Shown here one piece after another: positions 44,064 through 61,590 of a stretch of DNA of 64,000 bases. The DNA comes from Picochlorum sp. SENEW3. Taxonomy: Eukaryota. The position numbers and the translations under genes are program-made. The stretch's first letter is position 1, and each line of letters begins with the position of its first letter. The notes under the pieces were generated by a model that had not been told where the DNA came from, made no database searches, and saw only the letters and a program-made list of their open reading frames with translations. The stretch spans positions 1,054,001 through 1,118,000 of the forward strand of contig CP120453.1 in the NCBI GenBank assembly GCA_034226945.1, read 5' to 3'.

Positions 44064-45080
44064 ATGGTGCGCGTGCGCGCCGCTCACATGTCACATGTGA
44101 TAAGGACAATGCTGCTGCTGTTCGTGTGCTGTGGTCTACCAGGCATGGTATGGGGAGCGGACGGGGCGTGCAGAGGAGCAACAAGTCGGGATGTGCTCTC
44201 AAACTTGCAGATTTACAGTGGGAATGAGAATGCTATTCTCATGTGGGAGTACCCGGAGGGTGTGTGTTTCCTGAGTTTTGTGGTGAGTGCCACAGAGCTG
44301 GATGGCTCTGGGCAGGATGTGAGGGAGGCTGCATCGTTCGAGACTACCCTGAGAAATACACTTGTGCCAAAGCTGAAAAACGGCATTCCATATCGGTTTG
44401 ATGTGCAAGTCAAGTATGCGAGTGATGCGTTCGGCCCGTCAATTTCCAACACGACCATACCATCTCCTCCATGCAAGCAGAAGGGAGAGCCAGGGCCTGT
44501 CAAAGGTCTGAGCGTGGTGCGACAGACACCAGAATCTGTGGGAATTTGCTGGTCTGCCCCCGAGGATGGAGTCGGATGTGTCGATGAATACATTATTGGG
44601 AAGAGAATGAAACCCAGGAATGATGCCGAGGCATTTTCAGAGGAATTCGAATGGACTATTAGCAAAGCAGCACTCCCTGGCTGCCATACATTTACAGACC
44701 ATGAGCTCAATCGGCCATATGAATATGGTGTCCAAGCATATAATGCTCCTTCACAGATTGGTGGTGAGGCCAAGGTTGTCAATGTGTATGTGGCTGATTC
44801 ATGGCGATGTCTTCCTCTTGGAACATACTACCCCACATGCCAGGCTGCCAAGGATGGTGTCTGTGAGGCACTTGACTGCTCTGAGATTGCAGCTCAGGAT
44901 AAATGTGATCTCCCATCGGTGAGAAAGTATGATGCATTGAGAAAAACTGTTGTTCAGTACTGCTCAAGCGTTTGTCCGTGTGATGTGCCTGATGAGGAAG
45001 AGATTGCCGTCATTGATGAATTGGAATGGATGGATTTTCAGAGTCCAAGTCTGCTGGATGATGACATCTGCTGCGCATAA
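44064..45080 (+). CDS. Secreted protein with two fibronectin type III domains and a Cys-rich C-terminus
   Basis: Signal peptide; ILMWEYP...PKLKNGIPYRFDVQV and ICWSAPEDG...YEYGVQAYN FN3 patterns. Confidence 0.8.
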   Translation: MVRVRAAHMSHVIRTMLLLFVCCGLPGMVWGADGACRGATSRDVLSNLQIYSGNENAILMWEYPEGVCFLSFVVSATELDGSGQDVREAASFETTLRNTLVPKLKNGIPYRFDVQVKYASDAFGPSISNTTIPSPPCKQKGEPGPVKGLSVVRQTPESVGICWSAPEDGVGCVDEYIIGKRMKPRNDAEAFSEEFEWTISKAALPGCHTFTDHELNRPYEYGVQAYNAPSQIGGEAKVVNVYVADSWRCLPLGTYYPTCQAAKDGVCEALDCSEIAAQDKCDLPSVRKYDALRKTVVQYCSSVCPCDVPDEEEIAVIDELEWMDFQSPSLLDDDICCA

Positions 45081-56531: not shown

Positions 56532-59500
56532 ATGGGACAGGTAATTGTCTCCCTCTGCTTCCTGCTTCAAGTCTGGAGCAGCTACCAGGGTGTTTCTGGG
56601 ACTGAAGATACTCCACTCCATGCTGAGAGCAAATATTTGAGGAGTAATGCGTGGGAACTAGTGAAAGCTGGTAATAAGGCCATTACGTCTCTCTCGGAGC
56701 TGACTGACGGTGTCTTTTCTTTGGAGTTGTTTGCAGAGAGATCTGATTGTGGAGCAGGTACAGTTTTTCTCACTACATGCCACGACTGACACGTGCCATG
56801 GTATTCCAATTACACGTGCGTTTTTGATCGTCTTAAATGATGATTCGATGTCCTCATGCAGAGTACTTGGGGTTCTACAACAGGACTTGTTCGGTAGCAT
56901 TGTCTACTAAATCCTCTTCTGGGCCTGCTATGCGGGGACCCAGTGAATCTATGATATGGCGAGAGTGGTTGATACGCGTAGAAGATGACAAAGATGAATC
57001 CAAGAAAATTTCTCTTCAGGCATTCATCCACCCAGAGTTGAAAAAGGAGGCCAGATGTCTCGGGTTTGTGAGCACCTTCTATAATAGCCCAGAGTACAAG
57101 GGGACCTGTGTTATTCCTCCATACGGAAATGAATTATTTCTGAATGCCAGCCAGGATCAATCTAGAAAAAGTTCGCAGATTTGGACAATCCGTTCTGCGG
57201 ATCGCAGGGTAGGAGCATTTGAGTTGAGTGCCTCCAACAAGCCAGATGTCTGCCGACGAGTTCTGGCTGTCGAGGACTGTCAATCTCAGCCGGCGCTTGT
57301 ATTTGAAGAATCTACCTCTTATATCACAACGTCCATCAAGTATAGGACCTGGAAGATAGTTAAGAGATATGATGTAGTGCCAACGTCATCTCCACCCCCA
57401 CCTCCATCTCCAACACCACCGCCAACTCCTTCTCCACAGGACCTTGTATCACCACCGCCACCGCCACCGGCTCCGGTCCCAGGCCCAATCATATCTGCTC
57501 CCAGCTCCTCGAGTTCCGGGTATGTAAATGTCCGGGTAAATCAATTGGGGGGCAACAACCGCTGTTTTGTCAAAAACATTGTGATCACTGTCACAGGTAG
57601 CAGCATTGGATCAACTGCACATACATTGGAGGTGTCTGCGTCCTGGCCAGAATTGAATTCTGCAGGCGTCGCCGTCCCTTTGCAACAAATTGGCTATAAT
57701 TCCATCTACGCTACAGGGACATGCTCTTCGGGAGAGTCAACAGAAAGATCGAATGGCCTGTCAGTTTTCTACTCTGCCCCTGTAGGTCCTGCTCCAAAAA
57801 TTGCAGACTCTGTGCTCTTTTCTCTTCGGTATGATGGCCTCAGTGGATCATCGTTTAGCTCAACCGACAAGGACTTGGTTTGTGCAAATATTGGTCAAGT
57901 TCAACCCGGGGGAACTTGCCGAATCCTCTCTGTGCTTCCTGGCAGTGCAGTGGTCACAGGCACTGTCACATACCCTTCCAGCCAGGAAGCAACTAACCTC
58001 GTGCAGCAGCTCAATAGTGGGTCTGCATCGACAACGTTGTTACAAGGTAATTGGATGTCGGGGACCCCAACAGGGGTGGACACGGAGGTTGCTGAGCAGG
58101 AACCCCTCCCACCAACTCCAAGGACACCAGACCCGCCAACTGGTGTTAGGATGACACCATACAATGGTGATTGTCCAACTGCTGGCTTAGAAGTATCTTT
58201 CACTCCTCCAGCAGATAGAGCAGGAATTCTCGGATACATCACAACTTGCAGTCCTTCAGGGCCTTATTCAACAGCACCCTCCCTGTTGACTGCAACTGTT
58301 GTGAAAACTGGTGCAGGCACATCGCTCATCCGCGTGACGCCACTCAGTCCTCAAGTGAGCTACTCATGCTCGATGCAGAGTCTATCTGTAGACGACGTAT
58401 CTGCGTTCGCAACGTCTGGAGCGTCGGTGGTCACTGGCTGCACTCCATTGCCATCACCACCACCTCCTCCATTACCGCCACCTCTATCACCGCCACCTCT
58501 ATCACCACCTCCTCCATCACCACCTCCTCCATCACCACCTCCTCCATCACCGCCACCTCTATCACCGCCACCTCTATCACCACCTCCTCCATCACCACCT
58601 CCTCCATCACCACCTCCTCCATCACCGCCTCCTCCATCACCGCCTCCTCCGTCACCGCCTCCTCCATCACCGCCTCCTCCATCACCGCCTCCTCCATCAC
58701 CACCTCCTCCATCACCGCCTCCTCCATCACCGCCTCCTCCACCCTCTACATCATCGGTCACTGCTCCAATCATCTCTTCAGTAGAAAGAAAGATTGGATC
58801 CGAGAGCAATACGCTGCAGGTGACATGGGCCCCAGGAAATGACAGTGTTCCTCCAGCAGGAGATCCAGCATTTTTTGTGACATGCCTCACGAACGGCAAC
58901 CCGTGTCCAGCATCTCCGTCATATATACTGAATAGGCCACCTGGGACGACGACCACTGATGTGCAAGGTCTGCCAACCAATACCTTGTATGACTGTTATG
59001 TGGTAGCGAAGAATTATGACGGTAATGGTGTGTGTTCCGCTGCACAAAGGAATTCTACATACCCTGCCCCTACTCCTCCAATAATATCTTCTGCTGATTA
59101 CAATTTTTTTGATGTGTCAGTGGGAGTCACATGGACCCCAGGAATAGACAGTGTTCCTCCAGCAGGAGATCCAGCTTTTTTCGTAACATGCGTTACTAGT
59201 GGCACTCCATGCCCAGTATCTCCAGCATATAATGTGAGTAGGCCATCCGCGGCAACCACCACTATTGTGAGAGGCTTGTCAACTGACACAACCTATGACT
59301 GTTATGTGGTAGCCAAAAGCTCTCAGGGCAATGGTGTGTGCTCGAATATGAAAACTGCCACGACAGCATGTTTCCCTGGAGATTCTGTTGTGATTACCCC
59401 AACAGGAAAAAAGCTAATCTCTCATCTTGAGGTCGGTGATAAAGTTTTGACCGTCTCCAGAATGGGTTTGGTAATCTTTGAGGAAATTTACATGCTGGGG

Positions 59501-60031
59501 CACAAAGATTTCCACTCTGTAGGGTTATTCCTACGAATTCATACCCTCAGTAATGCTACCTTGCGACTTACACGTGACCACCAGATTTCATTTACATCCC
59601 ACGTAGATCAAGCACCTAAATATGGTCCAGCAGCCGCAGTCAAAGTGGGTGATTATGTCCATGTTCTCTCAGAAGACAACACTATTGTATCATTGAGCAA
59701 AGTTACAGCAGTGGAAGAGATCTTTGCACAAGGATATTTCAATCCATACACCATGGAGGGAAATATTGTCGTTGATGGAATTGTCGCATCCTGCCATTCG
59801 TCTTTCATCTTGGACAATTTGTTCAATAGAATGGGAATATCCATCCCTGCTGGGTATCAGGCTGTGTTTGCTCCCTTGAGAGTTATTTTCAAAGCTGTTG
59901 GAGCAAAAGCATTCCAGCATATCCAATTCCTAATAGATGCCATCATTGACATAGTGAATCACCCTCACTTGACCTGGAGTCAGATCATCAGAAATGAATT
60001 CTACTGCGGCAAAGTCTCCAAATGTGATTGA
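56532..60031 (+). CDS. Secreted Pro-rich (SPPPP) FN3 protein with C-terminal Hedgehog-type Hint/Hog domain, 2 exons
   Basis: Signal MGQVIVSLCFLLQVWSSYQGVSG, phase-1 intron 56758-56861; Hint motifs CFPGDS, LEVGDKVL, LTRDH, NPYTMEGNIVVDGIVASCH. Confidence 0.88.
58450..58745 (+). repeat. 15-nt coding tandem repeat encoding (SPPPP/SPPPL)n extensin-like tract
   Basis: About 19 tcaccRcctcctcca-type units. Confidence 0.95.
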
Positions 60032-60687: not shown

Positions 60688-61590
60688 ATGTTTCTTAAAG
60701 TTTTGCTTTACGCCACGTTCATCGTCTCTTCGGGTACGAGTGATTGCCGCGTCCCACATGTATTCGACCACCAAGTATCGGATGGCCATTATTTGAAATT
60801 GCTAAAGAATTAATAGAGCACTGTGTGTTGCATTAGAGAGTGCAGTGCATTGTACTTGCCGGGTATGGTGCAGTGTTCTCACGGTGATATTCATTACAAT
60901 GTTTGTACGCCATGTGCAGGACCTACCTGCCTCGGTCAAGCAGGAGAGAAGAATGAGACCCAGGTGAACTACGACACCTGCGTCACGTATCTCGAGGATG
61001 CTAGAGACTCCAAAGACACAGGAGGATTTGAGGCACTGGAGAAGACTATTTTTACGCAGTACCTGGAACATCCTTCGGGCCCTTATCTTATGTGCCACTA
61101 CACGAACGATTCCACAGATTTCCGTCAATTAACCCGCTTGATTCACCCGTACAATCCCAGAGGAGTCTCTATGGGTGACCGGTACGATCAGATGGAGGGA
61201 CAAGAGGCTGACACGTATCGGGAGAGCCAAGAGCGCCTGGTGAGAACTTCCAGGGAGAACAAGGACTCCGAAAACCTATTCCTTCAATGGTATCCCAACA
61301 ACCAAACCGCCGCGCAGGAGGCCGGAAAATACGTGAGCGGGGATCGCAGGGAGTATGTCATGCTTTCATTTGGATTGAATGACACTGAATACGAGGCTGA
61401 CCTGTTCCTGTGTGGCTGCCCGTACACGGGAATTCCGGAGGGTGATAGAAACAACACGAACGCGGTGGTCTTCTTCGATACGCGCGGAGGCGAGGAATCT
61501 TCCGGGGATCCCCTCTCACCAGGAAATGTGGTTGTCTCTTGGGGGCTGGCAGCATCGGTCGTCCTGTGCGCATCGCTCGGGGTGATTTGA
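60688..61590 (+). CDS. Secreted/GPI-type protein, Cache-like domain; paralog of 14490-15257
   Basis: Exon 1 MFLKVLLYATFIVSSG, phase-1 intron 60734-60919; shares PSGxY, IHPY, RREY, CxCP and IPEGxRNN motifs with the paralog; hydrophobic C-tail. Confidence 0.78.

Follow-up and report, generated by a model that had tools for sequence, protein, structure and literature searches.

A proline-rich, extensin-like protein of the green alga Picochlorum sp. SENEW3 ends in a complete Hog module of the Hedgehog type

The gene described here lies on the forward strand at 56532..60031 of a 64,000-nucleotide stretch of the Picochlorum sp. SENEW3 genome (assembly GCA_034226945.1, contig CP120453.1, positions 1,054,001 to 1,118,000; the whole stretch is hereafter called the window), and its product is a new green-algal example of a known module family joined to an unusual, extensin-like cargo. 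Profile, fold and catalytic residues all identify the C-terminal module of this 1131-residue protein as a complete, Hedgehog-type Hog domain, and self-cleavage before Cys912 is on that account a sound inference from homology. When the established Hedgehog mechanism is applied to the residues present, a broader picture arises to which we give an even chance, namely that the gene encodes the precursor of a secreted glycoprotein of the surface or wall, built of modules, and that its intact Hog module would cleave itself off and transfer the N-terminal product to a membrane lipid, by analogy with Hedgehog most likely a membrane sterol of the alga. The first-pass annotation of this DNA, made from the letters alone, had gone further and proposed a new way of anchoring or cross-linking wall proteins; as a new mechanism this is not borne out, since non-animal Hog proteins have been catalogued since 2008 (PMC2362128).

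The assignment of the module relies on profile, sequence and structure comparisons that agree with one another. The Pfam Hint profile (PF01079) matches at E=4.1e-30, its 105.4 bits exceeding the cut-off of 29.7, and the top sequence matches in the PDB are fly Hedgehog-C structures (6tyy, 6e-13; 6td6, 1e-11; 1at0, 1.3e-11), followed at lower ranks by human Sonic Hedgehog (7e-7) and then by an intein (2e-4). The AlphaFold model of the module, built from a 40-sequence alignment (pLDDT 90.3, pTM 0.85), has a core that is beta-rich and extends to model residue 152, followed by helices at residues 160-165, 170-177, 179-208 and 214-226, the tail block showing pLDDT values of 91-97 up to model residue 200 and of 82 and 79 beyond it. 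With this model as query, Foldseek returns 6tyy and 1at0 first (E ~1e-14, TM 0.94 on target, rmsd 1.4-1.5 A), and inteins at E 1.7e-9 or weaker with TM <=0.84. The first-pass annotation had called the Hint/Hog module apparently intact, and the profile, the predicted fold and the full set of catalytic residues all agree with that call.

The Hint part spans residues 912-1056 (59369..59803) and is followed by a tail of predicted helices, residues 1057-1131 (59804..60028), which occupies the place of the Hedgehog sterol-recognition region (SRR) and corresponds to the adduct-recognition region (ARR) of other Hog proteins. Within the Hint part, Cys912 (codon 59369..59371) aligns with fly Cys258, the Cys1 of motif A; His956 (59501..59503), in the local reading GHKD, aligns with fly Asp303 (D46); the TxxH motif T979-R-D-H982 (59570..59581) aligns with T326/H329 of motif B; and Cys1053, the first residue of the Cys1053-His1054 pair (59792..59797), takes the position of the second conserved Cys (C400/C143), the motif J of the window reading ASCH where the fly protein has ASCY. 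Residue -1, Ala911 (59366..59368), is predicted to become the new C-terminus after cleavage. The tail carries FAPLR (59867..59881), an instance of a FAPxR motif that we take to be the motif K of Burglin. The name ARR and the definition of motifs J and K come from that author's 2008 catalogue (PMC2362128). These elements, that is the Cys codon at 59369, the TRDH and ASCH blocks, the FAPLR tail, the Ala before the Cys and GHKD at the site of the Hedgehog Asp, had all been read correctly, and at the right positions, in the first-pass annotation.

A comparison with related Hog regions indicates which of these residues are general. An exhaustive HMMER search returned 4328 cluster representatives at E<=1e-3, 700 at E<=1e-10 and 28 at E<=1e-30; the best 150 of these matches, together with those of a separate search, make up a set of 157 relatives, from which 23 were dropped because their match starts after query position 15, leaving an alignment of 135 Hog regions (the query and 134 relatives). 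Cys1 is present in 134 of them, and the TxxH motif has Thr or Ser at its first position and His at its last in 135/135. A Ser precedes the second-Cys site in 133 regions and a His follows it in 124, and in the FAPxR motif the Pro is kept in 123 and the Arg in 118. The site of Asp303/D46 is occupied by His in 133/135 regions: across this alignment, a His at the general-base site is a trait of the whole group and not of this protein alone. One relative, P0077, has a full Pfam Hint match (positions 3-213, 497 bits) with an Asp in the D46 column and SCY at motif J, so that the alignment separates the Hedgehog type from a protist type with Gly-His and S-x-His at the same columns; furthermore, the FAPVR of P0077 aligns with the FAPLR of the window, which makes the tail motif common to both types. 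On the other side of the scissile bond, position -1 is free (Gly in 45 regions, Ser in 27, Asn in 10, Ala in 9, Gln in 8, Asp and Lys in 6 each, Thr in 4, and others). It is Ala in the window, Phe in the ortholog of Picochlorum sp. BPE23 and Thr or Ser in the relatives P0002 and P0003, and the cleavage-site residue turns over fast.

In Hedgehog, Cys1 forms a thioester with the preceding residue, assisted by TxxH, after which Asp303/D46 takes the proton from the 3-hydroxyl of cholesterol and this sterol displaces the thioester (PMC9163320, PMC13738340). A mutant with Ala in place of this Asp still forms the thioester and cannot use cholesterol (PMC13738340), and fly Hedgehog-C with an Asp-to-His change is reported to keep its structure, pKa, activity and cholesterol transfer and to accept more sterols (PMC9163320, review). 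The structure of this latter mutant is 6tyy, the best PDB match of the window module. Because the engineered Asp-to-His fly protein keeps cholesterol transfer (PMC9163320), and given that His is the rule in the group, His956 does not count against activity; nor does the Ala at -1, a residue shared with eight other regions at a free position where the ortholog itself has Phe. Overall, the module resembles Hedgehog-C (1AT0, 6TYY) by its Cys1, its TxxH motif, a second Cys in S-C-x, a helical FAPxR-type tail and its location at the C-terminus of a secreted precursor. On the other hand, it is only ~25% identical to it and differs by a His instead of an Asp at the base site, a His instead of a Tyr after the second Cys, an Ala instead of a Gly at -1, a tail that the Hedgehog part of the Pfam model does not recognise, and a cargo that is not the Hedge signalling domain (HH_signal), which Pfam searches find neither in the whole protein at E<=1 nor in its pieces at E<=10.

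Conservation within the genus points in the same direction. The closest database protein, P0001 from Picochlorum sp. BPE23 (1125 residues, annotated by NCBI), has the same domain order. Between the two proteins the tail is identical at 75/75 positions and the Hint part at 95.2%, the cargo being 77-93% identical (18/23 positions in the signal peptide stretch and 183/223 in the N-terminal head domain). The fragment that would be discarded after the predicted cleavage is, by this comparison, the most constrained part of the protein, which speaks in favour of activity in the module and of a role for the tail beyond folding.

Hedgehog processing occurs within the secretory pathway, and a parallel course of events may be proposed for the Picochlorum protein. 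Cys912 would attack the carbonyl of Ala911 in an N-to-S acyl shift assisted by Thr979 and His982, giving a thioester that might be handed on to Cys1053. The helical tail would recruit a hydroxyl-bearing acceptor from the membrane, and His956, at the site of the general-base Asp of Hedgehog, would activate it. The 911-residue N-terminal product would then be freed with the acceptor ester-linked to Ala911, and a Hog fragment of ~220 residues would be left behind. Anchored through its C-terminus in the outer plasma-membrane leaflet, this product would have a pair of FN3 domains beside the membrane and a hydroxyproline-type SPPPP rod carrying the head domain outward through a thin wall; by simple arithmetic, 103 residues at 0.31 nm each (polyproline II) would make a rod of ~30 nm. 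A hydrophobic stretch (19-residue Kyte-Doolittle window of at least 1.6) follows FAPxR in 67/135 Hog regions and places the module at a membrane in half of the group. With a lipid as the adduct, the outcome would be analogous to the glycosylphosphatidylinositol (GPI) anchor of wall and surface proteins, in which a C-terminal signal domain is also exchanged, within the secretory pathway, for a lipid that holds an ectodomain at the outer leaflet; the difference is that GPI attachment uses a transamidase, whereas the Hog reaction is self-catalysed through the Hint thioester and is predicted to yield an ester with a sterol-like alcohol.

Several points weigh against this explanation as a whole. 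Cleavage, adduct and location are all drawn from analogy, and a literature search found no published experiments on this protein or on any non-animal Hog domain. The Pfam Hint match ends at profile position 163 of 213. Only at the level of motifs does the tail look like the sterol region of Hedgehog, and a BLAST comparison of the tail with the Hedgehog-type relative P0077 gives nothing significant. The tail of the Picochlorum group has no membrane-span-like stretch, its best 19-residue window reaching 1.05. The second-Cys site is not conserved (Cys in 45, Ala in 49 and Ser in 19 of the 135 regions); in Hedgehog this Cys carries a branched thioester (PMC12054796), and with a Cys in just 45 regions such a step cannot be general. 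The signal peptide was called by a hydrophobicity rule of thumb and not by a predictor. Finally, the gene model includes an intron, and a check of four runs, all of them consisting of contigs and most of them DNA-like, showed no splice joints for the gene; a 151-nt contig from an oligo-dT RNA library of a sediment metagenome matches 56780..56930 exactly, that is the last 82 nt of the intron and the start of exon 2. Unspliced RNA, carried-over DNA or transcription starting inside the intron could each account for this contig, which neither confirms nor excludes splicing.

The features of the tail bear most directly on an alternative that we consider unlikely but serious, in which water resolves the thioester and the Hog module is a built-in maturation or release device that leaves no adduct. 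To form the thioester, the Hint core is enough by itself, as Asp-to-Ala Hedgehog mutants are cleaved by dithiothreitol (PMC13738340, PMC9163320), and both the lack of a membrane-span-like stretch in the Picochlorum tail and its match to the Hedgehog sterol region at one short motif only are in line with cleavage alone. However, plain hydrolysis would need neither the tail nor His956, and it is precisely the tail that has changed least between the two species of Picochlorum, the FAPxR motif and the His of the general-base site being moreover kept in 118-133 of the 135 Hog regions.

Whether the acceptor would be a lipid has also to be considered in light of the cargo, which is a mosaic of secreted-type modules. 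Residues 1-21 form a hydrophobic, signal-like start, with a top 10-residue window of 2.53 on the Kyte-Doolittle scale within the first 35 residues, in agreement with the signal peptide of the first-pass annotation. Next comes a head domain of about 220 residues (residues 24-246; 56601..57373, spanning the intron) with conserved Cys and Trp; this domain and the intron are two features absent from that annotation. The head domain has no Pfam match and no PDB sequence match by phmmer, and a profile built from it finds the domain at the N-terminus of the Hog proteins P0001, P0002, P0003, P0032 and P0018, with BLAST identities to the window protein of 60% for P0032 (E=6e-66), 47% for P0018 (E=4e-46) and 27% for P0003. 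P0032 (732 residues) and P0018 (781 residues), both recovered from assemblies, combine the head domain with Pro-rich tracts (5 and 2 SPPP-type units, respectively), DUF285 repeats and a Hog module; because these two proteins carry it ahead of their Hog modules, the head domain is, as judged from the sequences, a recurrent Hog cargo in this lineage. Its neighbours in the Atlas, which is based on a language model, are beta-trefoil families (score 0.94, low recognition 1844), the AlphaFold model from a 4-sequence alignment is unusable (pLDDT 45.8), and hhalign against a relative with a ricin domain gives a probability of 0.4%; a beta-trefoil fold for the head domain is only a lead.

The head domain is followed by a first Pro-rich tract (residues 247-285; 57374..57490), with 21 Pro in 39 residues and two S-P(5-6) units, and by a middle region of 205 residues (286-490; 57491..58105) that has no Pfam match and whose first part is common to P0002, P0003 and P0032 in alignments. 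The only PDB match of this middle region is a serine protease (E=5e-4); it falls in Gly/Ser/Val-rich strands and was judged compositional. Two FN3 domains (residues 706-911; 58751..59368), 63% identical to each other, stand directly before the Hog module and together match the fn3 profile at E=8e-12. A third FN3-like domain had been claimed as well; its candidate, residues 491-602 (58106..58441), scores 16.9 bits when taken by itself, short of the Pfam cut-off of 25 (E=0.0077), so that two of the three domains are solid and one is weak. Between the latter and the FN3 pair lies the extensin-like (SPPPP)n tract (residues 603-705; 58442..58750), where 76 of the 103 residues are Pro and 19 are Ser. 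At the DNA level, Tandem Repeats Finder reports 18.9 copies of a 15-bp unit with 92% matches at 58458..58741. The two Pro-rich tracts and the roughly 19 SPPPP units of the first-pass annotation are thereby recovered; of the 20 S-P(3-5) units counted over the full protein, 18 fall in this second tract. Tandem SPPPP is the classic extensin motif, Ser-Pro3-5 repeats being found in extensins and in the hydroxyproline-rich glycoproteins of green algae, and the ~19 tandem units of the window protein are alike in this respect. The protein differs from extensins in that the tract is one module of a mosaic and, being made of Pro, Ser, Leu and Thr only, shows no visible Tyr cross-linking motifs.

Such a cargo has the look of a wall protein, given its SPPPP rod, its FN3 domains and a head that the Atlas places next to sugar-binding beta-trefoils. 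This leads to a second alternative, the most daring form of the first-pass proposal, in which a wall polysaccharide or a further glycoprotein would provide the accepting hydroxyl and the protein would become covalently linked into the wall. A His at the base site is furthermore reported to relax the acceptor specificity of the fly enzyme (PMC9163320). We nevertheless regard this alternative as improbable: no precedent was found in the literature, and the hydrophobic stretch after the tail motif in half of the Hog regions points to a membrane acceptor. Moreover, processing inside the secretory pathway, as in Hedgehog, would take place before the wall is reached.

It is still less probable that the Hog module is an inactive relic retained as a structural or binding domain, a proposal to which the Ala in place of Gly before the Cys, the His replacing the Hedgehog Asp and the fact that activity is read here from sequence only would lend themselves. 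The nucleophile and the TxxH residues are all intact, position -1 is variable and the His is the norm across the family, and the module is 95-100% identical to that of the ortholog against 77-93% for the cargo, a sign of stronger constraint. As for an intein or bacterial-intein-like (BIL) element splicing or cleaving at both ends, it is barely credible, as the module sits at the extreme C-terminus and lacks the C-terminal splice junction of inteins (His-Asn, a downstream nucleophile and a C-extein), nothing but the helical tail and the stop codon coming after the Hint core, all 157 relatives likewise end 0-124 residues past the match, Hedgehog-C scores clearly above all inteins, and the Pfam Hint_2 profile stays below threshold (17.4 bits against 28.4).

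Returning to transfer to a membrane sterol, a wider idea may be put forward, tentatively and as a doubtful rather than a probable one: the group-wide His would mark an old, non-animal type of Hog enzyme joining proteins by an ester bond to the non-cholesterol sterols that the cell itself has, and in Picochlorum the result would be a sterol-anchored, extensin-like glycoprotein tying the plasma membrane to the wall and displaying a binding head at the surface. If true, this would be the first sterol-anchored wall protein of the green lineage and a lipid anchor independent of GPI. We found no mention of the group-wide His in the literature, although the supplementary alignments of the 2008 catalogue (PMC2362128) may show it.

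The nature of the adduct of non-animal Hog domains is a question standing since that catalogue. A protist Hog protein as such is unsurprising to the specialist; the Picochlorum protein is a good substrate for the adduct question and a clean case, with all catalytic residues, a natural His and a tail perfectly conserved between two species. In addition, Picochlorum grows fast in culture and is transformable. Should a sterol of the alga be found on the product, sterylation of proteins would cease to be confined to animals, and a new way to hold wall glycoproteins at the membrane would be added to green algae; should simple hydrolysis occur, the gene would encode an ordinary self-maturing surface protein.

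With respect to Hog proteins already described, the closest in kind are those catalogued in 2008 in red algae, mosses, club mosses, alveolates, cryptophytes, haptophytes, jakobids, cercozoans and a glomeromycote, in which motifs J and K stand behind unrelated and often secreted N-terminal regions (PMC2362128). The window protein shares this organisation but is from a chlorophyte, a group not named among these hosts in the available text of the catalogue. Genomes of Cyanidiophyceae each contain 2-17 Hog genes, whose function is called unknown and which are described as "potentially" involved in constructing the extracellular matrix by way of lipid modification (Plant Cell 2026, PMC13353863). 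These are, as here, secreted cargoes joined to a Hog module in a unicellular alga; they differ by belonging to the red lineage, by Kelch or trefoil-factor cargo where the window protein has its head and FN3 domains, and by their subtelomeric multi-copy families (PMC13353863), whereas the window gene is single-copy within the 64 kb by tblastn. A characterised green-algal or extensin-type Hog protein was not found in the literature.

Among the relatives, cargoes are varied. A Pfam scan of the 103 of 157 relatives within the size limit found Hint in all 103 and the Hedge signalling domain in none; DUF285 accompanies the Hog module in 6 of them, FN3 in 3, TSP1 in 2 and an AIG1-type GTPase in 2, and a ricin-type lectin, a chitin-binding domain and Xlink plus F5/8-C were found once each, which is the pattern of the non-animal Hog proteins of the 2008 catalogue. 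Extensin-like cargo is rare among these relatives: at least three SPPP units upstream of the Hog module occur in 2 of the 134 aligned ones (the BPE23 ortholog and P0032), and a 30-residue window with at least 50% Pro in 6. Word-index searches returned a single named database relative, the hypothetical protein of Picochlorum sp. BPE23, and an alignment-based search limited to proteins of 850-2425 residues found 2 proteins. Two relatives, P0059 and P0068, have their Hog module behind AIG1/GTPase-type domains, which are normally cytosolic and hence an odd cargo for a module of the secretory pathway. Another, P0180 (1164 residues), combines in its precomputed Pfam annotation a pore-forming-type MACPF domain (PF01823) with Hint.

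The Hog gene is genuine and belongs to the nuclear genome of a green alga, Picochlorum. Its two exons on the forward strand, 56532..56757 and 56862..60031, join in frame into a coding sequence of 3396 nt, as read from the sequence and its spliced translation. Exon 1 begins with the ATG at 56532 and encodes the signal peptide and the first part of the head domain; the intron (56758..56861) is 104 nt long, of the GT..AG type and in phase 1; exon 2 ends with the stop codon at 60029..60031 and is contained in a 1064-codon open reading frame (ORF) at 56837..60031 (+). The ortholog P0001, as annotated by NCBI, agrees with this model in its N-terminus and its exon junction, and as the closest database protein it places the window in a Picochlorum-type trebouxiophyte. 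The product of P0032, called from an ORF, starts just before the position of the exon-2 junction, which suggests that the intron position is common to P0032 and the window gene. The surroundings are gene-dense with ~46% G+C, and the neighbours are ordinary nuclear genes of green algae, encoding a PPR protein, a START/EDR2-like protein, a DUF789 protein, cysteine synthase and ribosomal protein L2. Two ORFs overlapping the extensin-like tract, 58360..58980 (-), which reads as poly-GGGGD, and 58246..58842 (+), which reads as poly-SSIT, are by-products of the 15-bp repeat and not genes. Elsewhere in the window, an ORF of 338 residues at 44064..45080 (+) has an fn3 match (E=4.2e-9) and may encode another secreted FN3 protein. 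Downstream of the Hog gene, the ORF at 60823..61590 (+) encodes 255 residues; its start is rich in Cys, a C-terminal stretch is hydrophobic, and Pfam gives no match.

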